Below, one piece after another: positions 20,947 through 50,970 of a stretch of DNA of 64,000 bases. The position numbers and the translations under genes are program-made. How positions within the stretch are numbered: position 1 is the stretch's first letter; every line of letters begins with the position of its first letter. The stretch comes from an uncultured Candidatus Saccharibacteria bacterium. GTDB lineage: Bacteria > Patescibacteriota > Saccharimonadia > CAILAD01 > BJGX01. The stretch is taken from the NCBI GenBank assembly GCA_964637185.1, contig CAZWVB010000002.1, positions 1,375 through 65,374 of the forward strand, read 5' to 3'. Below the pieces are notes generated by a model that was not told the origin of the DNA, ran no database searches, and saw nothing but the letters and a program-made list of their open reading frames with translations.

Positions 20947-20947
20947 G

Positions 20948-22330
20948 TCAAATCTCCGGGTTACTCTTTAGCAAATCTTTGGCTAGTTCGCGATAATCCG
21001 ATTCTTTGGTATCTGGTTTTACCACGTCACCAATTACTGCTTTGAGCCACGATACATTTAGATTATTGGGTTCCTCGCTCAAAAAAATTGTTTCAAGCAT
21101 GACTCTTTGCATAGGCAAGGTATATGTGCCACCAAGGTCTTGTATGAAAAGCTCAAATAGTTTGCGACCTACAGCAAGGTTTTTTTGTGATGCAACTGAA
21201 AGTTTGGTATTAAATCTTGAATATGTCTCCACTTCCGAATATGCTGCGAGTGATTGTAGTATGCGTTCCGACATATTTTGATAGTAGGTGCTCTGCGCAC
21301 GGCCACCAACACGACTCACTGACAAACCTATATTGAGAGCCGGCCTGATACCTTGACGCATGGTCTTAAGGTCAAACACCAATTGACCATCGGCTGTCGA
21401 TATCATGTTGGTTGGGAAATACCCAGTCAAATCATCATTGGGCGTGGTAGCCACTGCAAAGGCAGTCAAACTCTTGCCGGTCTCGGCATTGAGTCCAGCC
21501 CTTTCTAGCAAGCTTGCGTGCACATAGAATAGATCGGCTGGATAACTTTCTCGCCCTGGCTGCATACCAAGTTGTAATGCCATTTCTCGATATACCTTGG
21601 CGTGAGTTGCTAGATCATCATAGACCACCATGACATCATTTTGCTGCCAATAATGTTCAGCCAGTGCACACCCAACAAAAGGCGCTAGGTATTGTAATAC
21701 TATATTGTCTAAGGCGTCGGCCACGACAATAATACTTCGATCCATTACGCCTGCTTGGTACAAACGAAAGGCTAATTTTTCAATATCTTGCTTGCGTTTG
21801 GCAATTTCTACAAATACAGCTATTGAATTGCTATTTTTTAAATGATGTATGGCTGCTTGGCTTAGCATACTTGATTTGCCAGCTTTGGCGTCACCAATCA
21901 CAGCTATCCTCTGGCCTTTGACAACTGGGAAAAGTGAATCGATGATTGTGACACCTGTTTCTAATTGTTGATTGACTAACCCTCGCTTATTGATTGGTAA
22001 CGCCTTGCCAAACACTGATTGCAAGACCAGCTCAGAACCCTTGTCTATTGACTCTTTTTGCAACAGGTCATAAACCTGATGGGTTTTCCCAAGTGTGTCT
22101 TTATTGATCTGCACTTGCAAGCTCCTAAACTGTGGCTTGATATGTTGGCTATCAATTCGTCCATCGGGAGTGAGCGAAAGGGCTTGAACAGTTTGTGCGC
22201 TTGCCTTGTGTACTAGAGCAGCAGCATTATCAGCCTGTATAGTCGCCTGTAAATGTATGCCTTCAATGGGCCCACTGGTCAGTATGTAGTCGTTGCTACT
22301 ATTTACTGATTGCTTTGTGCTCTCCTGCAT
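20948..22330 (-). CDS. F1-ATPase alpha-subunit-like P-loop protein. Divergent, 460 aa.
   Basis: GQRIAVIGDAKAGKSS (canonical GQRELIIGDRQTGKT). YLAPFVGCALAEHYW, VVYDDLATHAKVYREMALQLGMQPGRESYPADLFYVHASLLERAG match the alpha-subunit signature YLAPY.GCA.GE…[41 protein letters not shown]. Confidence 0.85.
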   Translation of the reverse strand: MQESTKQSVNSSNDYILTSGPIEGIHLQATIQADNAAALVHKASAQTVQALSLTPDGRIDSQHIKPQFRSLQVQINKDTLGKTHQVYDLLQKESIDKGSELVLQSVFGKALPINKRGLVNQQLETGVTIIDSLFPVVKGQRIAVIGDAKAGKSSMLSQAAIHHLKNSNSIAVFVEIAKRKQDIEKLAFRLYQAGVMDRSIIVVADALDNIVLQYLAPFVGCALAEHYWQQNDVMVVYDDLATHAKVYREMALQLGMQPGRESYPADLFYVHASLLERAGLNAETGKSLTAFAVATTPNDDLTGYFPTNMISTADGQLVFDLKTMRQGIRPALNIGLSVSRVGGRAQSTYYQNMSERILQSLAAYSEVETYSRFNTKLSVASQKNLAVGRKLFELFIQDLGGTYTLPMQRVMLETIFLSEEPNNLNVSWLKAVIGDVVKPDTKESDYRELAKDLLKSNPEI

Positions 22331-22331
22331 A

Positions 22332-23183
22332 TCAAACTCCTATTATTATGTATACGCCAGCAAAGGCGGCAAAGATTATTATTACTACTGCTAATATCAC
22401 TTGACCTAGACTGCGAAGTACAGCTGGTTTGGCCAGCGGATTGCGGCCTATGGAGCGTATGCTAGAAGTGACGGCCGAAAATAGCACTACCATAGCCGCG
22501 ATTGTCGATATCACTACCACCGCAAACGCCGCAGCGGCACGGATCGGTGTAAGCTTTTTACCAGCCAGGTTTGAACTAAGTGCTTGCAGACCAGTTAGCG
22601 CATTGTTGCCAGATTGGCTACCAGTCGGCTGGTATTGCCCAAGTTGAATATCAGAGTTAATTAGACCAATATCATAGCTGTGATTATCACCTTTGTTATC
22701 TGTTAGCTGACGACTGGTTTTGTTTTCCATATCGCTACTGCTAGACCTAGCAATGCCTACCAAAGTACCACTAGTTGTAGCTTTCATCGCCACCCCATCA
22801 ATAGGTGATAGAGTCAAACTATCACCAGGGCTGATTGGACCATTGATGTTACTTACCAAGATTTTGCTTGGTCCAGAGCTAGTCACCTGTACATTGCTAC
22901 CTGTCGGACTTACTGAGACGACGCCCTGCGTCACAGTACTAGTCACACCTACAATAGGTTGATTATTTTGGAGCGAGGCCGTCTCAACATTGGTCTGGCT
23001 GTTAGTAGCCAAGCTTACAATGGATCCAGCCGATATTGCGACTGAAGATGTATAGCCCTGAGTCACATTAGCAGCTACCGCCGGTACAGCAAAGAACATG
23101 CCTACAGCTACCATGGCACCCAACAACCTTATTCGAAACCAGCAAAACACCTGAGAACATGTGTTCTGCGAAACACTACTCAT
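22332..23183 (-). CDS. Signal-anchored Ser/Thr-rich ectodomain protein. Its C-terminal two-helix hairpin resembles an ATP-synthase c subunit but lacks the conserved carboxylate.
   Basis: N-terminal hydrophobic segment LLGAMVAVGMFFAVPAVAAN. About 190 aa of S/T/N/Q-rich sequence. C-terminal hairpin AAAAFAVVVISTIAAMVVLFSAVTSS-IRSIGRNPLAKPAV-LRSLGQVILAVVIIIFAAFAGVYIIIGV, with a polar loop (RNP) like the c-subunit RQP loop but no Asp/Glu in helix 2. It is immediately upstream of the alpha-like gene. Confidence 0.55.
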   Translation of the reverse strand: MSSVSQNTCSQVFCWFRIRLLGAMVAVGMFFAVPAVAANVTQGYTSSVAISAGSIVSLATNSQTNVETASLQNNQPIVGVTSTVTQGVVSVSPTGSNVQVTSSGPSKILVSNINGPISPGDSLTLSPIDGVAMKATTSGTLVGIARSSSSDMENKTSRQLTDNKGDNHSYDIGLINSDIQLGQYQPTGSQSGNNALTGLQALSSNLAGKKLTPIRAAAAFAVVVISTIAAMVVLFSAVTSSIRSIGRNPLAKPAVLRSLGQVILAVVIIIFAAFAGVYIIIGV

Positions 23184-23232
23184 AGCTCTTATGCTACACT
23201 TTTTGGGCTAACTTTTCCAGTTGGAGTTGGAA

Positions 23233-23853
23233 CTACTTCCTAGTTTTGCCGGCTAGTTTTAGTATCAGCTCAATCAGAACGCCTAGCACACCGCCTAATA
23301 TCAGTAGTACCAATAGTAGCCAGTTCGGTAGCGGGTAACCATAGACTCGTGCTGCAAAATACACTACTAGTCCCATGCCTATGCCAACAACTGCGCCACC
23401 GATCAGTACGGAAGGACGCAGTATTGTTTTTTCGGCAGCATTACTAACTGTTTCTACAACAGGATTGTGAACAACTTTGGAAAAAGCCCTACTGCCAGCT
23501 GGCAACTGTGTTTGTATTTTGCCAAGTTCTTTTTTGTAGACGCGTTTTTGCTCGGCTTTGGTCAAAGGCGTCTTTGGCTTTTTCTCAACTTCCTTAGCTT
23601 TTTCAGACTTCTTTTCTTCGGCTTCTTTGGATTTTTCCTGCTTACGAGCTAGATCAGACTCTTTTTTCTCCAATTCCGCTTTTATCTTGCGTTCAGCAGC
23701 TTCTCCCTTGCGGGCTAGATCAGCTTCGTCACGTTTTTGTTCAGCCTTAGATTTTTCAGCTGATCGATTACGCTCAAGACTTTCGGAGCTACTTTTGGAT
23801 AGCTTAGCCTCAGATTCTTGTCGTTCTACTAATTTCTCTTCATCCGCCGCCAT
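23233..23853 (-). CDS. K/E-rich coiled-coil protein with two C-terminal transmembrane helices.
   Basis: 206 aa. About 110 aa of charged low-complexity sequence (EKKESDLARKQEKSKEAEEKKSEKAKEVEKK), then VLIGGAVVGIGMGLVVYFAARVY and LLLVLLILGGVLGVLIELILKLAGKTRK. The start overlaps the stop of the upstream gene by 1 nt. Confidence 0.5.
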   Translation of the reverse strand: MAADEEKLVERQESEAKLSKSSSESLERNRSAEKSKAEQKRDEADLARKGEAAERKIKAELEKKESDLARKQEKSKEAEEKKSEKAKEVEKKPKTPLTKAEQKRVYKKELGKIQTQLPAGSRAFSKVVHNPVVETVSNAAEKTILRPSVLIGGAVVGIGMGLVVYFAARVYGYPLPNWLLLVLLILGGVLGVLIELILKLAGKTRK

Positions 23854-26210
23854 TACTTGCCGCCTCCCTCATTTAGTGTTTCTAGTAAATCTAGCTCACG
23901 CTTCATGAGACGATTCTTAAGCAGTAAGAATATCGACATGGCAGCAAGTAAGCCCATCACTATCAGACTAGCCGCTGCGCCTGTTCGCGGTAATTGAGCA
24001 GCAGTACAGTCAAGCCTCTTGGCTGGGTTCACACTAATCGGAGTCACCACTACATTGCCCTCAAATCGATCTTCCATCTGACAATCGTAGTTCTGATTAT
24101 CGGTTGGCTTTTGTGCAGTTGTTGGGATTGGATCTTTGACTTGTACGGTAAAGCTCTTAGTGATATATGTCGGATCATTTGGGTTGGTACTGACAGGTAT
24201 GTCTACAGCAGGCCAGACCAGTGAAGTTCTTGTAGCTTCTACTTTCAACTCCGCGCCGCCTTTATCTATCACATCGGCATACATGATGATATCTGAGATA
24301 TCGTCTTTGAATATATAGCCTTTGATGGGAGCAGTACCTATATTGGCAAGACCAATAGTATAGGTTAGCTTGTCTCCTGCTCTAGCCGTAGCACCGTTAG
24401 CATCAGTCGGTTTACCATCACTTGTCAATATGGTTAGATTCTTGACAGTCTTGCGGAACACATGCTGCTCAAACTTCAGTGGTAGCGTACAGGTCGGCTT
24501 GCTAGAAGTCACTGACCCATCAGCTCCAACAACTGTTACTTTGGCTGTATAGCTACCTCCATTCTGATAAGTGTGCTTGATATCTTTGATCTCAAGAGCG
24601 CCACTTGTCACTGTTTGCTTGCCACCATCTCCGAAGTCAAACTGGTATTCCTTGATAGTGGTGTTGAGCGCACCTCCTCGAGCTGTGAAATTGACGTCTA
24701 CAGGAACAGTATCACTGGTGGTGGGTGTGCCAGTGAGACTGACACAAGTAATATCTTTCGGCTGAGGTGTGACTACAAAAGGTACTCCACAGCTTGGCCT
24801 GTCTGGTGCAGGATTGCCGTTCACGCTATCATACACTCGTAATAGTATCAGATAACTACCTGGAGCGGTGGTTTCAAACTGAGTCGCACTAAAACCGGCT
24901 GGATTCTGAGAATTTGCTAATGGGTCTACCAGGGTATTTTGGGTTGGGAAGGTGTGGATTATTCTTGATTTTGCTTCTTGATATGTTTTGCCGTTTTGCG
25001 TATACGTCGGCCCTGCTGTGCCTGCGGGCACCTCCTTGAGGTATAAGTATTCAAATTTTCGAGCGAATACATCTGGTCCAATTTGCCCTTCTTGGAGCGC
25101 TGTACCTTTGATAAATGGTGTAAATGGTGCTTGGAACGTAAAGTTGTTGTTCTGATTGGCCATGTCCAGCCCACCACACACTAGGGTCTTAGGAGCCTGC
25201 ACCTGTACATCTCGCGAACATTCTCCTGTACCACTTCCGGAGGCAAAATATTTAACGCCATTTACATCGAAGAACACTACTAATCTGATCTGATAATTAC
25301 CAGGCTGATTGAATTTGAAAACCCTGAGTGTACCGTCTTCAAAAACTCCAGGCGACTTTTGACCAACGCCACTTGCGGATTGAAGTGGTGGGCTCACTTG
25401 GCTATCAGTAACCAGTTGGCCATCCTTGTACACTCCATACGCCATATCAACCAATTCACCTGGATCCACATTCTGACCATTGGCATAACCTCTATAGCCA
25501 ATCTCTGATCCAGCCGCGATAGGCCCAGGCACAGTGTAATTTAATGAGGCACAGCTAATTTCCTTGGGTGGTGGAGGTGGTGGTACTGGCAAAAGAATAA
25601 TATTACCACATTCTAGGATGACTCCCCACTGATACCATCCTTCAGGTATGCCAGGCCCACCATCTGTTACGTGGACAATTTGGCTTGGATCAGTACCACC
25701 CATAAGCGCATTAAAACATATACCGTCATTGGCATTTGGATTACCCCAGCGATGTACCGATGATCCTACCCAAATATTTGGCTGCCATTCTACTGAAGTG
25801 TTGCCACCATCTTGGCTACGACCCATGGAAATCCAGTTGTCACCCTCACGTGCGCCCCCTCCGTTTGGGCCACAAACTGAGACTCCAGCTGCCTGCATCT
25901 TTTCTCGGCTGATACCAAGCCGACCAAAAACTTGATTAATTCCGTCACGATTCTGATCCCAAACCGCCGATATAAGCGAGTCTTTATTGAAAGGGGCACC
26001 TGTTATCAGGTCAAAGGGGCTTGCTGCAAAGCTTGGTTTGGGCGGAGCTAGAAGTGTAAATATTTGGAACAGCAAAAGCCCGATAATAAATATGCTAGCG
26101 ATACGTCTGGTAGCAGTCTCGGCTACTAGACGTTTTATATAGTAACCAATACGATCTGGTGACAGTCGCCCAGCAGACACCGAAGTCACAATATCTTTAA
26201 AGTTTATCAA
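23853..26210 (-). CDS. LPXTG (LPRTG) cell-surface protein with PKD-like and DUF11-like repeat domains.
   Basis: 785 aa. N-terminal signal-anchor (IASIFIIGLLLFQIFTLLAPP). PPPPPP linker. PKD-type motif (YQFDFGDGG…TYQNGGSYTAKVTVV). DUF11-like segment (LTYTIGLANIGTAPIKGY). C-terminus LPRTGAAASLIVMGLLAAMSIFLLLKNRLMKRE. Confidence 0.7.
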   Translation of the reverse strand: MINFKDIVTSVSAGRLSPDRIGYYIKRLVAETATRRIASIFIIGLLLFQIFTLLAPPKPSFAASPFDLITGAPFNKDSLISAVWDQNRDGINQVFGRLGISREKMQAAGVSVCGPNGGGAREGDNWISMGRSQDGGNTSVEWQPNIWVGSSVHRWGNPNANDGICFNALMGGTDPSQIVHVTDGGPGIPEGWYQWGVILECGNIILLPVPPPPPPKEISCASLNYTVPGPIAAGSEIGYRGYANGQNVDPGELVDMAYGVYKDGQLVTDSQVSPPLQSASGVGQKSPGVFEDGTLRVFKFNQPGNYQIRLVVFFDVNGVKYFASGSGTGECSRDVQVQAPKTLVCGGLDMANQNNNFTFQAPFTPFIKGTALQEGQIGPDVFARKFEYLYLKEVPAGTAGPTYTQNGKTYQEAKSRIIHTFPTQNTLVDPLANSQNPAGFSATQFETTAPGSYLILLRVYDSVNGNPAPDRPSCGVPFVVTPQPKDITCVSLTGTPTTSDTVPVDVNFTARGGALNTTIKEYQFDFGDGGKQTVTSGALEIKDIKHTYQNGGSYTAKVTVVGADGSVTSSKPTCTLPLKFEQHVFRKTVKNLTILTSDGKPTDANGATARAGDKLTYTIGLANIGTAPIKGYIFKDDISDIIMYADVIDKGGAELKVEATRTSLVWPAVDIPVSTNPNDPTYITKSFTVQVKDPIPTTAQKPTDNQNYDCQMEDRFEGNVVVTPISVNPAKRLDCTAAQLPRTGAAASLIVMGLLAAMSIFLLLKNRLMKRELDLLETLNEGGGK

Positions 26211-26279
26211 TGAAGTACCCTCATTAGTATTTGTATTCGATTGTATTACGAATCATAAGCTGGTTGCAAGCCCTGGCGG

Positions 26280-28784
26280 CTAATTATGAGAACTGTCACG
26301 ACCCATACCGCTACTGACAGCCTGACCAACTTGTGGGTCGCCATAGCTCCCACTATCCAGACTATGCATTATCTCGGCTGCTACTTCGCTCTTGGGCCGG
26401 CCGTACTTGCTACGCGACAAATCCTTCATAGCCTGTAGTATCTCAGGGTTGGGAGTGCCGATAGGGGGCTGACAATCGAGTGAAAATGGTGTGGTCGGCA
26501 CACCATTGGCCATGATTTTAGCAACTAGCTTGAAATTGGGTATATTGATCAGATCGTGTTTGTCGAATTGTGGCTGGTACTGCTTCTCCATGTACTCGGC
26601 ATCATCAGTACCAACACGAAAGGACGTCAGTGAACCAACATTGCCAAACACGGCATCGCGGACCTGCTCATCCAACTGGCTAATAAACTGATTGGCAACT
26701 ATCAGGCTCAGGCGGTATTTGCGAGCTTCAGACAAAATGGTGGCAAAACTATCTGTGCTAAAATTCTGGAATTCATCGACATAGACCGAGAAGTCTGGTC
26801 GTTGTTCCTCGGGAGTATCAGCCCTACTCATGGCTGCCATCTGGAATTTGATGACCATAATCATACCCAGCAGCTTGGCGTTGAGATCACCAAGCAGACC
26901 TTTGCTGAGATTTACCAGCAATATTTTGTTGGTGTCCATCACCTCACGGAATTTGAATGCCGAGTGCTTCTGACCAATGATGTTACGCATGATCTCATTG
27001 TTGGCAAACGCACCGAATTTGGATACAAACCAGCCTAGCATCTCAGATTTGCTATGCGCATCAGTCTGAGCCATCTCGCCGGTCCAGAAATCCTGTACTG
27101 TCGGGTCAGTGACATAGCGGAATTTTTTCTTGAGATACTCGTCATCAGTAAACACTTTGGGTATCTCGATAAAAGTGCCGCCTTCTGGATCGGCCATCAC
27201 TGTAAGAGCGGCATTGCGAAACCAGTGTTCGTAGCGAGGCCCGATAATACCTTGATGCTGAGGGTCATACAGTTTGTACAACATTTGGATTGCTTCTTGG
27301 ATCAAGAAGTCCTTTTGCTCTGGCTTGTCTGGATCGTACTCCATCATATTAAATCCGAGCGGTACCTCGGTATCACCGGGGCTAAAGTAGATGACATCCT
27401 CTGCTCGCTCTGGTGGGATCATACCCAACATCTTCTCGGCAGTATCACCGTGAGGGTCGATAAAAGCAAACCCTTTGCCAGCCGCTGCATCTTGCAACAT
27501 CAGATTCTCTAGGAAGGTTGATTTACCAGTACCTGTTTGACCTATGACATACAGATGGCGTCGACGATCATTGTCACTCAGATAGATTGGGGTTTGGGTG
27601 GCACGATAAACATTGGTACCCAATAAGAGACCCGTCGCTGGCATGCCGCTCGGTGCAGCGATCTCCTTGGTGCCGCGTCGCTCTATCGGGGTAGCAAGCT
27701 CGAGCAACTCACTTGGTATATGAAATATAGTTGCGAGCTCGGCGGAGTTGAGAATTAACTGATGGGCAAAAAAAGTTTTCTCACGAAAAAAACGGAAAAT
27801 AAAGTTTGTCGCAAGCTCCTGTGGCGAGTCAGCTTTGACGAACTTAAAACGGTTAGCATCATACTGTGCCAATTGTGCAAAACCAAGTAGCATGTCCTGC
27901 AATATCAGCTTGGCTCGAGCAGGATCGTCTGAGCTAGCTACTAGCCGGATATTACACTCAAATGCCGGTAGACGCACCTTATCCTCCACCAGCTCGCCTC
28001 GTTTTTTGTCTAGCTCATTGGGTTCTTTGCTTTTCTTCTCATCTTCTTTTGTGCCAAGAGGTGATCGTATAACATCACCAGCAAAATCCAAAGCTTGTGG
28101 AGCAAATCCCTGTTTCTTTTTGGTGAAGTAATATTTGGCTCGACGATGTGCTCGTTTGACCCAACGGTAGGGGGCTGGACGTACCAATATTTGTATAGCC
28201 GCAGCATCACCAGCATCTAGATTGGACAAGCCAGCCAGCATGCCGGCGATCGCATCGCGCTCGGCGGTCTTATAAGTGCTGATGGGCAAGATGGCATCCT
28301 TAGCCAATTTGAGCTCACCGCCAGTCACACCGGCGATCTTGCTCACCTGGGAAAATAGATTGATTTCTTCTTTGCGTATCACCTGTACACCAGGGTAGCC
28401 TGCAGCTAAAGCTTTAGATATGGTGGATATCAAACTAGCCGGCACCGAAGTGTAAAAGTAGATCTGCTTGGCTTCTGCTATTATTTCAAATGCTATATGT
28501 CTACGGCCATAAACCTCAGCTTTTTCACTTACAATACCTGAGAGCAAATTGAACATCTGCTCCGCTCGAGACACGCTCTCTTTGATCATCTCACGTTCAT
28601 CACGATTTTGTGCTTCATTGATTTCTTGAGGTGGTAATTTTATCAAGAGTGGTACAAACTTCAACGAGCGCTCGACTTGCTTGCTGTGACGCACGATGCG
28701 ACGGTAGACGAAGAAACCAACAAAAATCAGTACTACCACAAACAGAGCAAACAAAACACTCATGAAGATCACAAATTGGTTCAT
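26280..28784 (-). CDS. Membrane-anchored P-loop NTPase of the VirD4/TraD/HerA-FtsK-like (AAA_10/TraG-D_C type) family.
   Basis: 834 aa. N-terminal TM helix (MNQFVIFMSVLFALFVVVLIFVGFFVY). Walker A HLYVIGQTGTGKSTFLENL followed by FIDPHGD. Walker B FSVYVDEFQNF. The architecture (TM helix + about 400-aa spacer + ATPase) resembles conjugative coupling proteins. The start overlaps the upstream gene by 4 nt. Confidence 0.6.
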   Translation of the reverse strand: MNQFVIFMSVLFALFVVVLIFVGFFVYRRIVRHSKQVERSLKFVPLLIKLPPQEINEAQNRDEREMIKESVSRAEQMFNLLSGIVSEKAEVYGRRHIAFEIIAEAKQIYFYTSVPASLISTISKALAAGYPGVQVIRKEEINLFSQVSKIAGVTGGELKLAKDAILPISTYKTAERDAIAGMLAGLSNLDAGDAAAIQILVRPAPYRWVKRAHRRAKYYFTKKKQGFAPQALDFAGDVIRSPLGTKEDEKKSKEPNELDKKRGELVEDKVRLPAFECNIRLVASSDDPARAKLILQDMLLGFAQLAQYDANRFKFVKADSPQELATNFIFRFFREKTFFAHQLILNSAELATIFHIPSELLELATPIERRGTKEIAAPSGMPATGLLLGTNVYRATQTPIYLSDNDRRRHLYVIGQTGTGKSTFLENLMLQDAAAGKGFAFIDPHGDTAEKMLGMIPPERAEDVIYFSPGDTEVPLGFNMMEYDPDKPEQKDFLIQEAIQMLYKLYDPQHQGIIGPRYEHWFRNAALTVMADPEGGTFIEIPKVFTDDEYLKKKFRYVTDPTVQDFWTGEMAQTDAHSKSEMLGWFVSKFGAFANNEIMRNIIGQKHSAFKFREVMDTNKILLVNLSKGLLGDLNAKLLGMIMVIKFQMAAMSRADTPEEQRPDFSVYVDEFQNFSTDSFATILSEARKYRLSLIVANQFISQLDEQVRDAVFGNVGSLTSFRVGTDDAEYMEKQYQPQFDKHDLINIPNFKLVAKIMANGVPTTPFSLDCQPPIGTPNPEILQAMKDLSRSKYGRPKSEVAAEIMHSLDSGSYGDPQVGQAVSSGMGRDSSHN

Positions 28785-30801: not shown

Positions 30802-33531
30802 CTAGCAGACTTTGATATCAGCCAGAGATTCTAATTGAGATAATTTTGCGATAAATTTTTGTACGGCAGCATTGATATTCTTGGCATCAGGTTTTTCGCC
30901 AAGGTCCATTACTAGCTGTATGGTAATTCTTTTGCGGCGCTCTTTTTTGAGCTCGTCATCTTGATACTCACCAATATATTTCGCAATCACGATATCGCTT
31001 TGTTTGACAGCTACTGTACTAAAATCTTGCCATAACACTAACTGATTGCATTCCACCGTCAAATCCCTAAGCACGAGAGGGTAAGCAGGTAACTTTCGAA
31101 TAGTACGCTCTACCACCTGACTTCGCAAATCAGCAATATTGATTTCCAAATATGATAGCTCACGACGCACACCAAACGCAGTTGATACACGTGGATGTAG
31201 TTGTCCTATCACGCCTATCTCATGACCTTGATATTTAACAATCGCCTGACGGCCCTTTATCATGTCAGGGCGGTCACTACGATGCAACAGGCTATTATCA
31301 AACCCAATTTTATCTAACACGGCTTTGAGCCTGGTGTAGCTATCACTGCCAAAAGAAGTGGCTGCCAATGCCCAATTCTCACCAACTTTTGTGGGTTTGT
31401 TGAGCCAACTTTGTATTCTTGAGATCTCAAAAAATAGTCCGGATTCAGTGTCGGCTTGATTATTGCGAACCACCTGTAGATGACTTGGCATCAAACTAGT
31501 GCGGATCAAAGCCTGTTCTTTTTGCAACGGGTTGGCAACTGCTAGCGCATTATCAATATTTACACCAACCATATTTAGTGCCTCTTCAGATACAAAAGAG
31601 TATGTTACAACCTCTTGAGCTCCAATGTCTACCAACTGCTGTTTAAGTCTAAGAATATTAATAAGCTGCTGATGAGAGCCTGTCGGGGTAGGTGGCAAAC
31701 TTGGCAAAGTGTCAGGCATATTATCATAGCCGACTATTTTAACTGATTCCTCTATCAAGTCTTCTTCCAACTTGATGTCACTACGCCACCACGGCACCTG
31801 GACGGCTATGATATGGTTGAAACTATCCAAATATCTACGGGCCCCGATGTAGCCTCGACGTTGCTTAAATTCCTGCAAAGATGTATATCTTACTTTGCCA
31901 ACACTTTTTTTGGCTTCTATAACCTTATTGCTACCCAAAAACATGGCTACATGGCTGACATTGTGACGCTGTTTGGCCAATTTGGGGTCACTGATGCCAC
32001 CTGCTACAAACAACAGATCACCTGGCTTGAGTCTATCTCCGTCAGTAAGCTCACGACCGTTGGTAGACTGCTGATAAGCACTGTGGCCTATCATCAAACC
32101 TAGCTTGGAGTAAATCCGCTCGGTTAGGTAGCTACAATCAAATGCTTCCTCGCCATCCACTTTATACGACGCACCCCACTTATATGGTTTGCCGAGGTGT
32201 TTTTTGGCCTCAGCTGTCAGCGAGAAATGCTCAGCTTCAAAGCCACGCTTTGTCAGGCCATCCAAGATTTGTTTTTCATCCACCTCCATGCCTAGTATCT
32301 TCTCAGCCCGGCGCATTCGCATTGCAGCCAGCTGGACCCAAGGCCAGACATACAATTGATCGTGCGGTGCCTCAAGCATCTCAGCATCACAAATTTCGGT
32401 CATCAATTCTACTAGTCGATTGGCAGCGACCGGTTGAAGGGGGAGTGGTAAGCCGCGCTCAAATCTAGAGCTTGCTTCGGTGCGCACACTATTACGTAGC
32501 GCCGATTTACGCACGACAGTTTTATCAAAATTTGCCACTTCTAAAACCACCTCTGTGGTGTTCGTATCGCATTCGGTATCACTGCCACCGATCACGCCAG
32601 CAATGCCAACGACCTTTTTACTATCGGCTATTACCAAGTCATCTTTCACCAGTTGACGCGTTTTACCATCCAAGCAGGGAAGTGACTCGCCAGCTTTTGC
32701 CCATCGTACCTGCAGATCGTCTTGTAGTTTATTAGCATCGTAGGCATGGCTGGGCTGCCCATATTCCAACATTACAAAATTGGTAATATCAACCACTGGG
32801 TTGATACTACGTAGCCCGTTTGACTCCAAGTTATCCACAAGCCACTTGGGTGTTGGCTTGGCATTGTTTAACTTAAGATGCACCGTAATCATCCTGCTGC
32901 AAACTTTGGTATCCTCTATTTTTACTCGCTCTTTTTTATCGTAGTCCAAGTCCTCCTGCTTGGGTTCTGCCAACTGGCACGGCCTATGGGAATTGGCCGA
33001 AATTTCACGGGCCAATCCAATCAATGACAAGGTATCCCAACGATTCGGATGGGTCTTGATGTCCAGGATATCTCCAAAATTCTCTATGTCGCACAATGAT
33101 TTACCAAGCGGTAGGTCAGGGGAAAGTTCCATCAGCCCGTTGTGGTCATCGTTAATACCAAGCTCTGCTGCCGAGCACAGCATGCCCTCGCTCAGCTCGC
33201 CACGAATCTTAGCTTTGGCTATTTTGGTTTGGTCGGGCAACACTGCGCCAACTTTTGCCAATACCACAATTTGATCTTCTGCTAAATTGGGTGCGCCACA
33301 CACAATGTGATAGGTTTTTTTACTGTCGGTCACTAGCGCTAGCCTCAGTCGATCGGCATTTGGATGTGGGTTTACTTCCAATACTTGTGCAACTATTACA
33401 AGCTCGTCCCAGATCGGTGGCTTGATTACTTCTTCAAGTTCGATTTCTGTTCGTTCTATAGCCTGCGCAATTTCATCAGTGGATAAGGCTGGCTTGAGAT
33501 ATTTATTGAGTGAATATATGCTGATTTTCAT
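30802..33531 (-). CDS. pheT: Phenylalanine--tRNA ligase beta subunit, carrying a ~130-aa NlpC/P60-like insertion in the B5 domain.
   Basis: 909 aa. N-terminal tRNA-binding and B3/B4 regions. The B5 signature is split: …ILDGLTKRGFEAE [insertion] …VQVPWWRSDIKLEEDLIEESVKIVGYDNMP. The insertion KPYKWGASYKVDGEEAFDCSYLTERIY…GDLLFVAGG…SHVAMFLGSNKVIEAKK has the NlpC/P60 Cys…His…polar arrangement. The C-terminal FDX-ACB-like domain is present. Confidence 0.85.
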   Translation of the reverse strand: MKISIYSLNKYLKPALSTDEIAQAIERTEIELEEVIKPPIWDELVIVAQVLEVNPHPNADRLRLALVTDSKKTYHIVCGAPNLAEDQIVVLAKVGAVLPDQTKIAKAKIRGELSEGMLCSAAELGINDDHNGLMELSPDLPLGKSLCDIENFGDILDIKTHPNRWDTLSLIGLAREISANSHRPCQLAEPKQEDLDYDKKERVKIEDTKVCSRMITVHLKLNNAKPTPKWLVDNLESNGLRSINPVVDITNFVMLEYGQPSHAYDANKLQDDLQVRWAKAGESLPCLDGKTRQLVKDDLVIADSKKVVGIAGVIGGSDTECDTNTTEVVLEVANFDKTVVRKSALRNSVRTEASSRFERGLPLPLQPVAANRLVELMTEICDAEMLEAPHDQLYVWPWVQLAAMRMRRAEKILGMEVDEKQILDGLTKRGFEAEHFSLTAEAKKHLGKPYKWGASYKVDGEEAFDCSYLTERIYSKLGLMIGHSAYQQSTNGRELTDGDRLKPGDLLFVAGGISDPKLAKQRHNVSHVAMFLGSNKVIEAKKSVGKVRYTSLQEFKQRRGYIGARRYLDSFNHIIAVQVPWWRSDIKLEEDLIEESVKIVGYDNMPDTLPSLPPTPTGSHQQLINILRLKQQLVDIGAQEVVTYSFVSEEALNMVGVNIDNALAVANPLQKEQALIRTSLMPSHLQVVRNNQADTESGLFFEISRIQSWLNKPTKVGENWALAATSFGSDSYTRLKAVLDKIGFDNSLLHRSDRPDMIKGRQAIVKYQGHEIGVIGQLHPRVSTAFGVRRELSYLEINIADLRSQVVERTIRKLPAYPLVLRDLTVECNQLVLWQDFSTVAVKQSDIVIAKYIGEYQDDELKKERRKRITIQLVMDLGEKPDAKNINAAVQKFIAKLSQLESLADIKVC

Positions 33532-33540
33532 ATTGTTAGC

Positions 33541-34521
33541 CTAAAATTGTGATAGATACCTCAGATTGGGTCGCCAGAGTTGGCGAATATCATTGAGCCC
33601 ATACCTAATAGCTGCAAAACGCTCAGGCCCCCAACCAAAGGCAAAACCACTGTATTTCTCAGGATCTATTCCCCCATTGTTCAACACTTGTGGGTGCACC
33701 ATGCCAGCACCACCGAGTTCTAGCCATTTTCCATTGTGCCAACCGTCAAATTCTACTGATGGCTCAGTGTACGGAAAGTAGTTGGCGCGAAATCTGATCT
33801 TAGCATCCTCCCCAAGTAGTCGCTGCATTACTCTAGTCAATGTGCCTTTAAGATCAGACATACTTACACCCTCGCCCACTACGAGGCCTTCCACCTGATA
33901 AAACTCCCATGAGTGAGTAGCGTCTTCGTCTTCATTGCGAAATACCTTACCTGGTACTATTATTTTAAATGGCGGCTTGTTTTGCTCCATATATCTGACT
34001 TGCATACCTGATGTATGGGTGCGTGGCAGTAGATCTAGCTTGGGGGTATCTATGTAGAAGGTATCTTGCATATCACGAGCAGGATGATCAGGTGCAATAT
34101 TCAAAGCCTCGAAGTTATACCAGTCAGTCTCGATTTCATTACTATCTACGATAGCAAACCCCAACTCTGTAAACACCTGATATGTCTCAGCAAGCATTTG
34201 AGTGGTTGGGTGTAGAGCGGCCTTGTTGTTTTCTATTTTACCTGGGGCTGATACGTCTATGGGGTCAAATTCCAAATCAGATTCGATATTTGCCAATCTA
34301 GCTTGAAACAACCCCTCCAGCTTTGACTTGAGTTGATTGATTTGCGCACCTGCTACTGCGCGTTCACCCTGATCTGTCTTTTTTAGGTCTTTCAGGAGAC
34401 GAGCCACCAAACCATCACTCCCGAGATATTGGCTTTTTACATCCAAAAGCTCATTCTTAGTTGTGGCAGCATCGGCCTTACTTTTGGCCTTTCCTAGATC
34501 AGCTTCCCATTGTTTATTCAT
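33541..34521 (-). CDS. pheS: Phenylalanine--tRNA ligase alpha subunit
   Basis: 326 aa. Class II motifs (…HPTTQ…, NIAPDHPARDMQDTFY, GWGPERFAAI…) with typical spacing. Lies immediately upstream of pheT. Confidence 0.9.
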   Translation of the reverse strand: MNKQWEADLGKAKSKADAATTKNELLDVKSQYLGSDGLVARLLKDLKKTDQGERAVAGAQINQLKSKLEGLFQARLANIESDLEFDPIDVSAPGKIENNKAALHPTTQMLAETYQVFTELGFAIVDSNEIETDWYNFEALNIAPDHPARDMQDTFYIDTPKLDLLPRTHTSGMQVRYMEQNKPPFKIIVPGKVFRNEDEDATHSWEFYQVEGLVVGEGVSMSDLKGTLTRVMQRLLGEDAKIRFRANYFPYTEPSVEFDGWHNGKWLELGGAGMVHPQVLNNGGIDPEKYSGFAFGWGPERFAAIRYGLNDIRQLWRPNLRYLSQF

Positions 34522-34991
34522 TGTTCTGTTTTGCTCCTTGTACGAAAATACAGTTCGATAATTACCACAGTCAAAATAAACAAAATCATATCACGAATAG
34601 TAAGACTCTTCAAACTCATCAATCCAATAAGCAACGTCAAGCAAAGTGAGCTTAGCAACCCTACCCTCAAACCATCTTTCAAACATTGATTATGCTTTTC
34701 GCGCCAGGTTTGTTTTCTCATACGCCAAATGTAAAAAATCATGCTAATTAGTGAAGCCGCAAATACAAAAAAGAATAGAAACCAAATAGTTACACCAACT
34801 GGTCCAAGCTGTTTTGGTGAGGTTGCACCAATCAAATAGCCCAGAACTGCTCCAGTAATCGTTACCACTATCAGCTGTATTATCATAGGTAGCCAAATAG
34901 ATCGATTCTTCATAACTACAATTATCTCACGATTTTGATAAGGTTTGTATATCTTGACGTAGCAACATTCAGCTGTGGATATGTCGAACAC
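34518..34991 (-). CDS. Small polytopic membrane protein of unknown function, with four predicted TM helices.
   Basis: 157 aa. Overlaps the pheS start by 4 nt. Hydrophobic helices (LPMIIQLIVVTITGAVLGYLIGA; VTIWFLFFFVFAASLISMIFYIW; LLSSLCLTLLIGLMSL; ILFILTVVIIELYF). The true start may be the internal Met (MKNRS…). Confidence 0.4.
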   Translation of the reverse strand: MFDISTAECCYVKIYKPYQNREIIVVMKNRSIWLPMIIQLIVVTITGAVLGYLIGATSPKQLGPVGVTIWFLFFFVFAASLISMIFYIWRMRKQTWREKHNQCLKDGLRVGLLSSLCLTLLIGLMSLKSLTIRDMILFILTVVIIELYFRTRSKTEQ

Positions 34992-35139
34992 ACATATTAT
35001 TTAAATAAAAGGTGCAGTATATCGTACACAAAGATTGTTCTAAATGCGTGAACAACATATTTATATCGTCAGCGTAATATCATTTCAGTGCATACACATT
35101 ATTTTTGTTATCTAGCTGTAACACTAATGTCACAATCTC

Positions 35140-35638
35140 CAAACAAAAAACCACCCGTTTGGGTGGTTTCTAATAAATACTTGGTTACGGGCCGACGCAT
35201 CCACTCTTTATAGATGTTATGAAACAACATTAGCGGGCATCGGCCCGGAGCATGACTCTCAATCAGAGATCGAAAGTCATAGAGAGGTCGGTCGTTCTAT
35301 TTCACTTGTATGTAATACCCTCCTGGCGTTAAGTGTTGTAGATCATCCGACTGGCTTCCCAACCATTCGTTTGGCAGCCAGCCAGATCTCGCGCCCCGAA
35401 ACATCGAGACGCAAGTACTGGCCAGCTCCGGCAGAATGGAAAAAAGCGAGTGCTTATTTTGGTCCAAGGCAAAAGCACTACCACTCCTAGAACAGTAGGG
35501 AAAATTCGGCGCTAAAAACAAGGGGGCTGTTCTTAGTGCCGAAGTTACCCTACTGTACACTCAACAGCTTTGTAGTTCAGCTGTTATTTTTTGTTGGCTG
35601 CAAGCAAGTTTTGTTTTTGTTTTTAATGAGCTACGTTT
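35140..35638 (-). ncRNA. Candidate structured non-coding RNA of about 500 nt, class undetermined, with its own promoter and intrinsic terminator.
   Basis: This is a 734-nt 'intergenic' gap in an otherwise gap-free region, and its GC is clearly above the flanks. Minus-strand sigma70-like promoter: TTGACT (rc of 35668–35673), 17 nt, TATACT (rc of 35645–35650). Minus-strand intrinsic terminator: AAACCACCCAAACGGGUGGUUUUUUGUUUGG (about 35140–35171). Between them lie many long perfectly complementary segments, for example ACAGUAGGG…CCCUACUGU, CGGGCCGAUGC…GCGUCGGCCCG, AGUGCUU…AAGCACU. The only ORF in it starts with GTG and has no RBS. Confidence 0.45.
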
Positions 35639-35644
35639 AAAGAT

Positions 35645-35673
35645 AGTATAGCATAGTGCTTATGCTTAGTCAA
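35645..35673 (-). promoter_or_regulatory. Sigma70-like promoter (TTGACT-17-TATACT) driving the candidate ncRNA on the minus strand.
   Basis: The hexamers are read on the minus strand, with 17-nt spacing. They lie about 50 nt downstream of the trpS stop and upstream of the GC-rich structured segment. Confidence 0.4.
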
Positions 35674-35725: not shown

Positions 35726-36706
35726 TTACAACAAACCAATCTTTTCTTTTACTTCTGCAAGTTTTGGATTGGCTATGGCAGATGCTTTGCGGGCTCCGTC
35801 AGCAATAATTGACTTCAACTTTTCCTCATTACTCATAAGTTCTCTAAATCTTTTCTGCAAAGGCATTAATTCACCTATTAGTGTTTGGGCGAGGTCTTTT
35901 TTGAAGTCCCCATAACCTTTGCCTGCGTATTTCTTCTCAATTTCTATCACATCGACTTTTGTTATTGCTGAGTATATCTGTAATAAATTTGTCAGGGCTG
36001 GCTTGTCATCGCTTGACTGTACCTCAGCTCCAGAATCAGTCATAGCTTGTTTAACCTTTGTTGATATTTGATCTTCGCTGTCGAGCAACAGTATACTTCC
36101 AGATGATTCTTCACTCTTACTCATTTTGCGGTTTGGGTCTTGCAAGCTCATTATCCTAGCTCCCACTTCTCTTACCAAAGGACGCGGGACTACGAATGTT
36201 TTTCCATATAGGTTGTTAAACCTATCAGCAACATCTCGTGCCAGCTCAACATGCTGCTTCTGATCCTCCCCTGTTGGCACAAAATCAGCACTGTAAAGCA
36301 ATATATCTGAGGCCATTAGTATTGGGTAGGTAAATAAGGCCACTATCTGTCCAGCGTCTCCATTACGGCTGCTTTTATCTTTATACTGAGTCTGCCTAGA
36401 TAGCTCACCCATAGTGACGTAATTGTTTAATATCCAGCAAAGTTCGGCATGAGCAGTTACATCAGACTGTACAAACAGTATACTTTTGTCAGTATCGATG
36501 CCCGCTGCAATCAACCATGCAACATTCGCAAGTGTCTCCCTTCTCAATCGCTCTGGATTTGGGCGAACATTCAAAGAGTGTAGATCTGGAACAAAGTAAA
36601 TTGTTTCGCCTTCTTGCTGGTATTCTACCCACGGCTTAATAGCACCTAGGTAGTTGCCGATATGAAGATTCCCAGTAGCTTGTATACCCGAATAGTAACG
36701 TTTCAT
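35726..36706 (-). CDS. trpS: Tryptophan--tRNA ligase
   Basis: 326 aa. HIGH-type motif (GIQATGNLHIGNYLGAI) and KMSKS motif (NRKMSKSEESSG). Size typical of bacterial TrpRS. Confidence 0.9.
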   Translation of the reverse strand: MKRYYSGIQATGNLHIGNYLGAIKPWVEYQQEGETIYFVPDLHSLNVRPNPERLRRETLANVAWLIAAGIDTDKSILFVQSDVTAHAELCWILNNYVTMGELSRQTQYKDKSSRNGDAGQIVALFTYPILMASDILLYSADFVPTGEDQKQHVELARDVADRFNNLYGKTFVVPRPLVREVGARIMSLQDPNRKMSKSEESSGSILLLDSEDQISTKVKQAMTDSGAEVQSSDDKPALTNLLQIYSAITKVDVIEIEKKYAGKGYGDFKKDLAQTLIGELMPLQKRFRELMSNEEKLKSIIADGARKASAIANPKLAEVKEKIGLL

Positions 36707-36722: not shown

Positions 36723-37796
36723 CTAGTCATCTAACTGCGGCTTATCCAACACGATCTGTTCGACCGACTCCTCGCTGGTAGCAATTTTGACCACATCTTT
36801 GTCCACTTTCTTAAGCTCTTTGTGGGCGTTATTATAATGATTTACCGTAGTACCCAGCGAATTGCCCAGTTTTTGCATGTATTGGTCGTAGTTGGCCAAA
36901 TGTTTACCAAGCTGCCCCACTCTCAACTGGATCTCCTTAGCCTGCTCCTCGATCTGTAAGCTGCGCAAACCCTGCAACACAGTCTGTAAATAAGCCATAA
37001 ACGAGGTAGGTGACACAATTATCACGTGCTTGTCGCGAAATGCATACTCTATAAGATCCTGTGAGCTAGTTTGCATACTCCCCACCTTGTTTATCAATAG
37101 ATCATAATAAATAGCTTCTGAGGGAATAAACATAAAAGCAAAATCCATAGTACTCTCGCTAGGCCTGATATATTTACTTGTTTCATCAATCCTAGTCTTA
37201 AGATCGGTTTTAAATTGCTTGACTAGTAGCTCTCGACGACTTTTATCACTTTCTTCGATCACTCTGTTGTAATTTTCCAAACTAAACTTCGAATCCACTG
37301 GTAGTATCTTGCCTTTTTCCAGCTTTATCACCGCGTCCACTGTTTCACCATCCCGAAACTTGTATTGCAAAGCATACCTATCTGGTGGAAGAACATTTTT
37401 GAGCACTGTATCAAGATAATACTCTCCCAATACACCGCGCTGCTTTGGATTTTGTAGTACGTTTTGCAACGTTTTGAGCTCGTCGGCAACATCTACTACC
37501 CTGCGATTGGTCTCATCAAGCTTGGTAAGGCGCTCCGTTACGTCGGCTATCAATCTAGCTGATTGGCCTATCTGCCTTTGCAGGTTGGCCTGCATAGCCT
37601 CACTATTACGGTCGAGCCTGTCACTTACCTGAGAGTGAGTTTGATTTAGGGCATTTTGAATGCCCTGCAGATCAGCCTTGAGCAGCTGTAGACTATCACC
37701 ACCAATTTGGGTAGTGGGCTTCTTGTATATCAGGTAGATGATGATTCCAAACCCACCTAGTAACACCAAAATAAGTAATACCAATAGTGTATTCAT
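36723..37796 (-). CDS. rmuC: DNA recombination protein RmuC-family
   Basis: 357 aa. N-terminal TM helix, a long coiled-coil, and the RmuC C-terminal signature …MDFAFMFIPSEAIYYDLL…. Confidence 0.65.
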   Translation of the reverse strand: MNTLLVLLILVLLGGFGIIIYLIYKKPTTQIGGDSLQLLKADLQGIQNALNQTHSQVSDRLDRNSEAMQANLQRQIGQSARLIADVTERLTKLDETNRRVVDVADELKTLQNVLQNPKQRGVLGEYYLDTVLKNVLPPDRYALQYKFRDGETVDAVIKLEKGKILPVDSKFSLENYNRVIEESDKSRRELLVKQFKTDLKTRIDETSKYIRPSESTMDFAFMFIPSEAIYYDLLINKVGSMQTSSQDLIEYAFRDKHVIIVSPTSFMAYLQTVLQGLRSLQIEEQAKEIQLRVGQLGKHLANYDQYMQKLGNSLGTTVNHYNNAHKELKKVDKDVVKIATSEESVEQIVLDKPQLDD

Positions 37797-37841
37797 AGTT
37801 ATTATTATAATCTATGATGCTTTACGAACACAATACGAAAT

Positions 37842-38693
37842 CTAATCTTCTACAACTCTACCTTTTGGATAGCTACCCAGCACAATTAGCTCATCTGCCA
37901 TATCATATACTTCTCCCAGTAACTGGTAGATGCCGGGCTGATCTATCCCGGCCTCAAAATCTATGTAGAAATAGTAATGCCATATTCTGCCGATATGAGG
38001 ACGTGACTCAAGTTTGCTTAGATTGATATTGCGTTTTGCAAATACACCCAGCAGATTATACAGCGCTCCAGGTTTGTCCTTGAGTGTTAGTACGATGCTA
38101 GTTTTATTGGCACCATCGACAGGTTTATTCGACTTATTTAGTACTATAAATCTAGTGTAGTTTTGATTGTTAGCCTCGATATGATCAGCCAGCACTGACA
38201 TGCCATGCAGATGAGCCGCTGCCTCGGAGCCTATCGCTGCCTGCGACTTGTCTCCAGCTTGAGATACAAACTCAACACTTTCGGCAGTATCATTGCGCTC
38301 AAACAACTCAGCTTGGGGTAGTTTCTCATGTAGATAGCTCTGTGCCTCAGATAGCGCTACAGGGTGCGAATAGACTCTATTAATATCTTTGAGATTCACA
38401 CCTTCAAATCCGATCAGTTTCAGCTCAATTTGCATGTACAGCTCAGCCACGATATTCAATTTACTTTTGCGCAACAGATCATATACTTCTGTAATACTAC
38501 CTGCCAATGAGTTTTCGATTGCTACGATTGCATAATCAGCTTTGTTGGTGGATAGCGCATCAAAAGTCTCTGGAAACCATTCACATGGCACCAAACCAAT
38601 GTCTTTTCCAAATATAGTATGCGTCGCTAGAGCATGGTAAGACCCTTCTTGGCCTTGTATAGCGACTCGTTTTGGTACTGCCATGACTGGCAA
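37842..38693 (-). CDS. pheA: Prephenate dehydratase (PDT catalytic domain + ACT regulatory domain)
   Basis: 283 aa. VAIQGQEGSYHALA at the N-terminus, and a C-terminal ACT domain with LESRPHIGRIWHYYFYIDFE (the ESRP motif). Confidence 0.85.
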   Translation of the reverse strand: MPVMAVPKRVAIQGQEGSYHALATHTIFGKDIGLVPCEWFPETFDALSTNKADYAIVAIENSLAGSITEVYDLLRKSKLNIVAELYMQIELKLIGFEGVNLKDINRVYSHPVALSEAQSYLHEKLPQAELFERNDTAESVEFVSQAGDKSQAAIGSEAAAHLHGMSVLADHIEANNQNYTRFIVLNKSNKPVDGANKTSIVLTLKDKPGALYNLLGVFAKRNINLSKLESRPHIGRIWHYYFYIDFEAGIDQPGIYQLLGEVYDMADELIVLGSYPKGRVVED

Positions 38694-44245: not shown

Positions 44246-44695
44246 ATGAAAATTGTCGCTACCAATCGCCGCGCCAGGCATGACTACCAGATAACATCTA
44301 CTATGGTAGTAGGTATTGTTTTGTCCGGAGCTGAAGTCAAGAGCGCCAAAGCTGGCAACCTAAGTCTCAAAGGTAGCTTCGTGCGCCAAAAAGACGACGA
44401 GCTATACCTAGTGAATGCTCATATTTCACCTTATAAGTTTGCGGCACAAGCTGACTACGACCCCACACGGGAGCGTAAACTCTTGGCGCATCGCCGCGAG
44501 ATTGAGCAAATCGGTGCCCAAGCACATGGTGCCAGTCTATCTGTTGTGCCTCTGGCAGCCGGCATCGAGCATGGGCTGGTAAAGTTGGAAATAGGCATTG
44601 GCCGCGGTAAGAAGATCTATGACAAACGCAGCAGCCTGCGCCAAAAAGCCGCCGAGCGAGATATCGAGCGTGATATCAAAGCGAAATCAAAATAA
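44246..44695 (+). CDS. smpB: SsrA-binding protein
   Basis: 149 aa. The conserved SmpB core (…IVATNRRARHDYQI…GIVLSGAEVKS…LVNAHISPY…RKLLAHRREI…) and a C-terminal basic tail. Confidence 0.9.
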   Translation: MKIVATNRRARHDYQITSTMVVGIVLSGAEVKSAKAGNLSLKGSFVRQKDDELYLVNAHISPYKFAAQADYDPTRERKLLAHRREIEQIGAQAHGASLSVVPLAAGIEHGLVKLEIGIGRGKKIYDKRSSLRQKAAERDIERDIKAKSK

Positions 44696-44810
44696 TCGTT
44701 CTAAACCTGTTGATGGCATCAAATTGTACAATTTATTTGTGCTATAGCACCGAGCTAACGTAAAAATCCCCCACTACAAATTAGGTGGCTTCTATGCTAA
44801 CATAAGCATT

Positions 44811-50406: not shown

Positions 50407-50476
50407 GATGCCGCCTTTGGTAGTGGTCTAGTTGAACTGGTGTACTTTACCACTCCTGTAGCCATCTAGCAAGTAT

Positions 50477-50500
50477 CAAAAAAGACCCATTGCTGGGTCG
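50477..50500 (-). terminator. Rho-independent terminator immediately after the tmRNA CCA end.
   Basis: On the minus strand: …CCACCAAAAGC-GACCCA-GCAA-UGGGUC-UUUUUUGA. Confidence 0.6.
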
Positions 50501-50504
50501 CTTT

Positions 50505-50885: not shown

Positions 50886-50894
50886 AATATCTAG

Positions 50895-50923
50895 ATTATA
50901 CAATAACTTGGTATATTTTGCAA
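50895..50923 (-). promoter_or_regulatory. Candidate ssrA promoter: TTGCAA-17-TATAAT on the minus strand.
   Basis: -10 TATAAT is the reverse complement of 50895–50900. -35 TTGCAA is at 50918–50923. The mature tmRNA 5' end is 10 nt downstream, consistent with a short leader removed by RNase P. Confidence 0.45.
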
Positions 50924-50947: not shown

Positions 50948-50970
50948 AGCTAAAATATACCTGTAGTAAT

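Follow-up and report, generated by a model that had tools for sequence, protein, structure and literature searches.

The gene trpS (35726-36706, minus strand; PF00579) of the uncultured Candidatus Saccharibacteria contig CAZWVB010000002.1 is separated by a gap of 734 nt from the next open reading frame (ORF) on the same strand (34518-34991). This gap, part of a stretch of 64,000 nucleotides which we will call the window, contains a gene for a structured non-coding RNA of about 500 nt, and we present an analysis of its signals, relatives, structure and possible role. The ORF at 34518-34991 has 157 codons (ORF157), with Met27 as the more likely start and thus 131 amino acids as the more likely length. 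It overlaps pheS (33541-34521, minus strand), which is followed by pheT (30802-33531, minus strand). A sequence-only reading of the window had drawn attention to the gap, the length of which is borne out by the trpS and ORF157 coordinates, and had placed the unit between trpS and pheST. Its position stands, but its direct neighbour is not pheS; it is the ORF for a membrane protein of 131-157 amino acids that overlaps the pheS start. The same reading held that all other gene junctions within 40 kb are shorter than 130 nt, which proved wrong: 331 nt (18475-18805), 529 nt (44282-44810) and, at the tmRNA gene, 564 nt (50407-50970) separate other genes.

Promoter, terminator and composition

The RNA is encoded on the minus strand and its gene is bounded by its own signals. 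Upstream lies a sigma-70-type promoter (35645..35673, minus strand) made up of a -35 box TTGACT (35668-35673), a 17-nt spacer and a TG-extended -10 box TATACT (35645-35650). It scores 10/12 against the consensus and is the top site in the region; transcription would start near 35638. The promoter, including its spacer AAGCATAAGCAYTTG, is kept ahead of every homologue described below. The spacer persists even between lineages in which trpS is only 50-65% identical (TTGACWnAAGCATAAGCAYTTGnTAYAMT), which hints at a regulatory or promoter-strength element.

At the other end stands an intrinsic terminator (35139..35169, minus strand) of the form AAACCACCC-AAAC-GGGUGGUUU followed by UUUGUUUGG. Its stem corresponds to inverted repeat I9 (35148-35156/35161-35169, 100% complementary) and is present in the minimum free energy (MFE) fold; a simple terminator scan did not list it. 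All of the homologues likewise end in a G+C hairpin and a U run, 15-60 nt past a conserved GUAACCA, and these terminators are unrelated in sequence. There is no terminator between trpS and the RNA gene, so that read-through from trpS is possible.

The G+C content reaches 0.49-0.505 at 35200-35499 compared with 0.33-0.39 in the flanks. The sense strand (506 nt) folds at -198.1 kcal/mol against -133.7 +/- 6.4 kcal/mol for dinucleotide shuffles (z = -10.0; 0/100 shuffles as good), while the antisense strand reaches -174.4 kcal/mol (z = -6.3). The sense strand is thus 24 kcal/mol more stable, an asymmetry that is expected if G-U pairs are used in a minus-strand transcript. Homologues fold equally strongly (z = -10.2 for L097 and -11.7 for L001). 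The near-consensus promoter, the minus-strand terminator and the GC-enriched, strongly self-complementary body claimed in the sequence-only reading are all upheld by these results.

Homologues and gene order

Relatives were reached by three independent routes: synteny with trpS, a scan of metagenomes with the pattern of hairpin P2, and covariance models. Together they gave 23 distinct homologues in metagenomes and metagenome-assembled genomes (MAGs), 20 of the main type and three divergent variants (L092, L128 and L001). L128 is a MAG named 'Saccharimonadales' at NCBI, and L001 is the GTDB representative UBA6017. When trpS relatives (57-70% identity) were fetched with their flanks, the space after trpS held in each case a homologue of the RNA, complete with a promoter and a terminator of its own. 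The closest trpS match among GTDB representatives, a Patescibacteria MAG, is only 57% identical. An exact-protein look-up added ten contigs of the same species (Logan assemblies of SRA runs and Joint Genome Institute (JGI) metagenomes) which are 99% identical over the trpS-ORF157 gap.

The exact-pattern scan of the JGI metagenomes with P2 words returned 19 loci, all 19 of them full-length homologues by profile search; the gene order, where flanks were visible, is rmuC-trpS-RNA-small ORF-pheS-pheT. A looser P2 pattern gave four matches (two distinct sequences) in viral contigs, which lacked the hairpin or homology and were set aside as chance. Single-sequence searches (blastn and nhmmer) of 80 GTDB trpS loci found nothing, as these loci are mostly from unrelated phyla; of the later profile and covariance models, the latter built from P2 and P8 (the two most conserved hairpins), the yield from the same loci was L001 only.

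The RNA is 84-88% identical to that of the nearest relative (L091), whereas the trpS DNA is 68-70% identical. It appears to be specific to a clade of the Patescibacteria, or candidate phyla radiation (CPR), its nearest named relatives being 'Saccharimonadales' and UBA6017. Within the window it occurs as a single copy.

The order of genes around the RNA is not fixed in all relatives. In L100 and L118 it runs trpS-RNA-114-amino-acid ORF-purD, with the ORF-pheS pair further on. In L128 a convergent M20 peptidase gene comes between trpS-RNA and ORF-pheS. L001 has trpS, a reverse-strand ORF of 445 amino acids, and then RNA-orf124-pheS. These arrangements indicate that the RNA is independent of either flanking gene. 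Taken together with the unrelated terminators and a separate promoter-like site ahead of ORF157 (TTTAGA-17-TATACT, 35044..35016), they speak against a pheST leader or attenuator and favour an independent gene acting in trans.

Structure and covariation

The predicted fold is a row of mostly local hairpins, P1 to P8, with two long near-perfect duplexes and short invariant linkers (all elements on the minus strand). Its most conserved element is P2 (35492..35556), which occurs in all subtypes and corresponds to inverted repeat I1. This hairpin of ~28 bp is invariant at its base (AGUAGGG/CCCUACU) and has NCCCCCU (35521-35527) as its 7-nt loop. P8 (35188-35247; CGGGCC...GGCCCG) is conserved as well.

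The sequence-only reading had proposed comparative alignment as a check, and its outcome is positive, with both conservation and compensatory changes in P2 and P8. Alignments of the two hairpins (A2 and A3, 20 sequences each) were made with MAFFT without structural input. In P2, 97.1% of the cells are paired, against 34-50% when the 3' partner is slid by 1-3 columns; in P8 the figures are 96.3% and 30-44%. Each hairpin contains eight doubly changed pairs, those of P8 including C-G to G-C exchanges, and none of 500 shuffles reached the observed values in either case. Over the full length, in an alignment of five sequences, 35 of 103 predicted pairs show a compensatory change. The homologues as a whole were aligned with anchor-segmented L-INS-i.

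The 5' strand of P2 (35545-35556) is repeated at a distal junction (35355-35368), so that GUAGGGAA occurs twice in the RNA and its complement UUCCCUAC once. Either copy could pair with that one strand, and the arrangement may be a conformational switch or a double binding site. In L001 both copies (6536-6548 and 6716-6729) read GAUGGUAGGA; they have changed together to GGUAGGA, and the complementary strand has changed too. In 20/20 members the P2 3' strand is complementary to the distal repeat AUGGUWGGGAAG over 10-12 nt with at most one mismatch. Three points tell against this alternative pairing: it has a central U-U mismatch in half of the members, shuffled sequences contain long runs too, and melting of P2, at -35 kcal/mol, is unlikely. 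The 20 RNAs contain 57 copies of the pentamer UAGGG where 6.8 would be expected, an enrichment of about eight-fold; the window RNA has one.

The remaining elements, from the 5' end, are as follows. The leader (35585..35627) is G-poor and A/C-rich (AUUAAAAACAAAAACAAAAC...) and is predicted to be unpaired; its word AAAACAAAAA is conserved in the main-type homologues. A leader mini-ORF, AUG-CCA-CAC, was considered and dropped, being limited to one subgroup with shifts of frame and length, and its conserved word more plausibly forms the loop of a small hairpin. The leaders of the variants are pyrimidine-rich, with CCUCCCGCAC and CCUCC(C)GCAC (L001 6510-6535, L092 4105-4140, L128 3600-3640). The latter word resembles an anti-Shine-Dalgarno sequence, and in the MFE fold of L001 the leader pairs with a distal GGUAGGAAG.

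Hairpin P1 (35564..35584; ACAGCUGAACUACAAAGCUGU), in which the family loop starts UGRWCUY, is predicted in 20/20 main-type sequences with stems that differ almost wholly. An anticodon-like reading of its loop (GAA) was abandoned, as GAU, GGU and GGA are found there too. The linker after P2 (35484..35491) reads UCUAGGAG in the window and UUCGAGGG in most members, and leads to the variable hairpin P3 (35449..35479).

The central arm (35355..35439) may be closed by CCAUUC (35434-35439) and GAAUGG, a tentative helix P4. It encloses the junction YCYG-NN-GGA and P5 (35373-35429), a near-perfect hairpin of 20-30 bp that differs in sequence in each lineage. There are clear 9-bp cases of P4 with a compensatory change in L123 and L113, and in most members a per-sequence shuffle test was not significant, the G/U-rich strand being one that pairs promiscuously. 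P5 is followed by the invariant AUGGUWGGGAAG (35355-35368), the near-repeat of the P2 5' strand. P6 (35287-35355) and P7 (35251-35286) are hairpins that vary in sequence and length in the family. After P8 comes the tail GUAACCA (35182-35188), invariant in 20/20 main-type sequences, and a spacer of variable length leads from it to the terminator. The short invariant loop or single-stranded elements are NCCCCCU, UUCGAGG, GGGAAG and GUAACCA. Resemblances to words of E. coli 4.5S RNA and the 16S 3' domain fall only in covarying stems of single subgroups and were treated as coincidence.

Comparison with known RNA families

At gathering thresholds the tmRNA is the sole match of Rfam 15 in the window, and six related loci gave none. 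At E<=10 the window RNA and the divergent L092 and L128 gave only generic hairpin or terminator look-alikes (microRNA precursors and the terminators of amino-acid leaders), so that no family matches the RNA in the Infernal-type search that had been suggested for it. The RNA had been judged by eye not to be RNase P RNA, tmRNA, signal recognition particle (SRP) RNA or a T-box leader, and sequence motifs and Rfam agree. The T-box sequence GGUGGNACCGCG is present in 0/23 members, as is SRP RNA domain IV (GGAAG..AGCAG; a GNAR loop, then AGCAG), and Rfam reports neither a T-box nor an SRP match. 6S RNA is a single rod of ~185 nt with a large central bubble, whereas the folds predicted here are multi-hairpin and ~500 nt long; there is no Rfam 6S match. 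The Rfam covariance models for ROOL, GOLLD, raiA and HEARO found no match, nor did that for OLE, even at E<=10.

The RNA is therefore absent from Rfam 15 and constitutes a new family among the large, lineage-restricted structured non-coding RNAs of bacteria. We found no description of it in the literature on structured RNAs of CPR, Patescibacteria and Saccharibacteria; it may be listed without a name in some bulk catalogue of motifs. Large structured RNAs new to science are seldom found in bacteria, and OLE, GOLLD, ROOL and raiA have repeatedly revealed unexpected architectures. The Patescibacteria (CPR) make up a huge and poorly understood share of bacterial diversity and have minimal genomes. 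To our knowledge almost no non-coding RNAs of the CPR have been described beyond the universal ones. A study of TM7x speaks of 'no currently validated small RNAs'. The RNA is under stronger constraint than the adjoining gene for an essential tRNA synthetase, in genomes of <1 Mb, and is therefore likely to be important for its hosts. With boundaries, an alignment, two covariance models and 23 members the family is well defined and fit for an Rfam entry.

Proposed function

On balance we lean towards the view that this is a new gene for a stand-alone structured non-coding RNA of ~500 nt which acts in trans, most likely as the scaffold of a ribonucleoprotein (RNP). That the RNA gene exists and is new we hold with high confidence; the scaffold mechanism is put forward tentatively, by analogy. 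The RNA would be transcribed from its own strong minus-strand promoter to the intrinsic terminator, perhaps with some read-through from trpS, and would accumulate as a stable, abundant housekeeping RNA acting in trans. It would offer proteins or other RNAs a platform to bind to, with the C-rich heptaloop NCCCCCU, the twice-repeated GUAGGGAA and the GUAACCA tail as the likely recognition sites. Trimming of the trailer could leave GUAACCA, which stands behind a G+C stem, as a 3' end of the tRNA-like ...CCA type. The sponge and scaffold RNAs CsrB/RsmZ and 6S offer a partial parallel: serial hairpins in which a short motif recurs (here UAGGG) and a strong conserved promoter. Unlike them, the new RNA lacks GGA-loop repeats and the central bubble of 6S, and its window copy has a single UAGGG.

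Several points weigh against this proposal. Transcription, ends and abundance are deduced from signals in the DNA. The pattern used for the metagenome scan partly forces the invariance of the P2 words GTAGGG, CCCCCTTG and CCCTACTGT in the 19 metagenome loci; the covarying P2 positions lie outside the forced words, and homologues found through synteny carry the same words. Among the 80 GTDB trpS loci searched, the 79 other than L001 gave no significant covariance-model match. A family seen so narrowly could have a lineage-specific regulatory role instead of a housekeeping one. We identified no partner protein or target. The scaffold idea is drawn from analogy and from the architecture, with its hairpins in series and its invariant loops and linkers. 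A ribozyme or an RNA that assembles with itself would account equally well for the long perfect duplexes and the conserved junctions.

Alternative explanations

The RNA might instead be regulatory, either as a stand-alone gene or as a product of the trpS 3' untranslated region, and use its C-rich loop NCCCCCU, or the CCUCC leader of the variants, to pair with G-rich ribosome-binding sites or other RNAs. Small RNAs of the Firmicutes such as RsaE/RoxS have C-rich seeds, which the loop recalls. The heptaloop is invariant in all subtypes, the lack of a terminator after trpS would suit a 3'-derived product, variant leaders contain CCUCCCGCAC, and some genes of the window have G-rich Shine-Dalgarno sequences (AAGGGG, AGGGGG). 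We nevertheless regard this role as improbable, if worth keeping in view. A length of ~500 nt and eight conserved helices far exceed what a seed-and-scaffold small RNA needs. Many genes of the window look leaderless and so offer no ribosome-binding site as a target. Sites of the type CAAGGGGG or AAGGGGG are rare in the window, with none at gene starts, and no target was identified.

A large 'ornate' RNA of the OLE, ROOL or GOLLD kind, catalytic or self-assembling, would also fit the size of the RNA, its long helical arms and the invariant nucleotides at its junctions; the adjoining four-helix membrane protein would then be a possible anchor. The sequence-only reading had noted that the size falls in the range of this group. 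The label is apt as a class of size and complexity and fails as homology, given the lack of any Rfam match at E<=10. OLE, ROOL and GOLLD form homo-oligomers (PMC12286853), and OLE forms a membrane RNP with OapA (PMC12265935), a protein with four transmembrane segments and a cytoplasmic basic cluster which is encoded immediately downstream of ole. Like OLE of the Bacillota, the RNA is ~500-600 nt long, highly structured, lineage-restricted and stand-alone, with the gene for a conserved, family-less small membrane protein with four predicted helices and a basic loop directly downstream in the same orientation at most loci. The two RNAs belong to different phyla, however, and the membrane protein has no Pfam match and no detectable relationship to OapA, not even a weak CNNM/DUF21 match. 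Its ORF is linked to pheS rather than to the RNA: the two reading frames are translationally coupled, and they remain together where the RNA has been separated from pheS (L100, L128).

With ROOL and GOLLD, which are RNA-only oligomers (PMC12286853), the new RNA shares long helical arms and the status of a large orphan bacterial RNA known mostly from metagenomes. It differs in being chromosomal and single-copy with fixed synteny, and in having no link to tRNA clusters or prophages and no Rfam match. Most of its helices are simple local hairpins, no multi-helix junctions or pseudoknots were demonstrated, and palindromic loop words considered as kissing loops (GAUC in P1, GUAC in P3) were rejected, as only about half of the members have them. 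An ornate RNA of this kind is accordingly a doubtful assignment. There is also a small chance that the RNA is the core of a clade-specific RNP machine with a new biochemical role, either docked at the membrane with the four-helix protein, parallel to OLE-OapA, or self-assembling or catalytic. In the RNP-machine or catalytic case the duplicated GUAGGGAA and its single complement UUCCCUAC could form a conformational switch.

A further explanation is a leader or attenuator acting in cis on ORF157-pheS-pheT, T-box-like or other, in which the terminator would be the regulated step. The RNA has aminoacyl-tRNA synthetase genes on both sides, points the same way as pheST, which lies downstream, and has a terminator at its end; in L001 it is directly upstream of orf124-pheS. 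Several genes around it concern aromatic amino acids (pheA, of the PDT-ACT type, trpS and pheST). T-box leaders and amino-acid attenuators share this setting, but the new RNA has neither T-box nor specifier, and apart from the terminator hairpin Rfam gives neither a T-box nor a leader match. There is no conserved antiterminator, as the terminator stems share nothing with the conserved upstream parts and are unrelated between lineages. The RNA is apart from pheST in some genomes, being followed by a convergent gene in L128 and by other genes in L100 and L118, and ORF157 has a promoter-like site of its own. The rearranged loci largely refute this explanation, and we consider it quite unlikely.

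The sequence-only reading had offered an unusual RNase P RNA as its alternative, and the length of the RNA roughly fits, as would its probably strong expression. In 10 of 35 complete CPR genomes the RNase P RNA was detected only with lowered RF00010 thresholds (Lui et al. 2021, PMC8172020), so that a match of ~5-13 bits is conceivable, and one of that size would be hidden by our E<=10 cut-off. One genome of an oral Saccharibacterium is annotated with only two non-coding RNAs, which is an open lead and not evidence. The diverged CPR forms, however, keep many conserved features and were found with RF00010 (PMC8172020). The CR-I word GGAAAGUCC (DNA GGAAAGTCC, the 5' strand of the RNase P helix P4) is absent from 22/23 members, the exception being L092, where it lies at a non-homologous position upstream of hairpin P2. 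The CR-V region is absent: AAGUCCGG (DNA AAGTCCGG) and CGGCUUA (CGGCTTA) occur in 0/23 members, and ACAGAA in 2/23. The 5' end is an unpaired A/C-rich leader and not a P1 strand; the would-be P4 3' strand is paired within the local hairpin P8, with its C-G to G-C exchanges. The long-range P1, P2 and P4 frame of RNase P RNA is not found, as the helices supported by compensatory changes are all local. In three divergent members (the window RNA, L092 and L128) searches at gathering thresholds and at E<=10 gave no match to RF00010 or RF00011. We therefore regard a highly divergent RNase P RNA as very improbable.

A decayed protein-coding gene or mobile-element remnant, suggested by an 87-codon open frame at 35297-35560, is already refuted and deserves next to no credence. 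That frame has no Pfam match, and every homologue has its open frames (>=45 codons) at other positions, on other strands and with other lengths, so that none is shared across the family. This outcome of the check for a frameshifted pseudogene agrees with the non-coding claim. The element is also single-copy in the window, and its helices are preserved by compensatory changes.

Neighbouring genes and other features of the window

The small membrane protein downstream of the RNA (34518-34991) is ~125-133 amino acids long in relatives, with four hydrophobic segments recognized by eye and a basic loop WRMRKQTWREKH. It belongs to no Pfam or NCBIfam family, and its ORF precedes pheS in all relatives, L001 and L128 included. 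The beta subunit of phenylalanyl-tRNA synthetase (909 amino acids; 30802-33531, minus strand) carries an NlpC/P60 domain, similar to cell-wall hydrolases (PF00877, amino acids 447-565), inserted between B3_4 and B5; the same domain is listed for pheT of the relatives L082, L092, L097, L102 and L127. Upstream of trpS, RmuC (36723-38693, minus strand) shows 69-75% amino acid identity within the clade, compared with 49-65% for its essential neighbour trpS.

The tmRNA (50505-50885, minus strand) is of the standard one-piece type, scoring 115.5 bits with Rfam, and specifies the tag peptide AKSLMRNLVNSSLAPAYA. A large block of surface- and secretion-like genes at 16129-28784 (minus strand) comprises those for a Peptidase_S74 protein, a PKD-domain protein, a TraG/VirD4-like ATPase and an L,D-transpeptidase, and adjoins genes for F-type ATPase subunits. 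An ORF of 1827 amino acids (10617-16100) is grouped with it, although it lies outside these limits. Operon-internal genes of the window have GGAGG or AGGAG as Shine-Dalgarno sequence. At many other genes (starts 36706, 37796, 39048, 30768, 54034, 55178 and 58195) a TATAAT-like box stands 6-9 nt before the ATG and there is no Shine-Dalgarno sequence, a pattern which suggests that leaderless mRNAs are widespread in the window.

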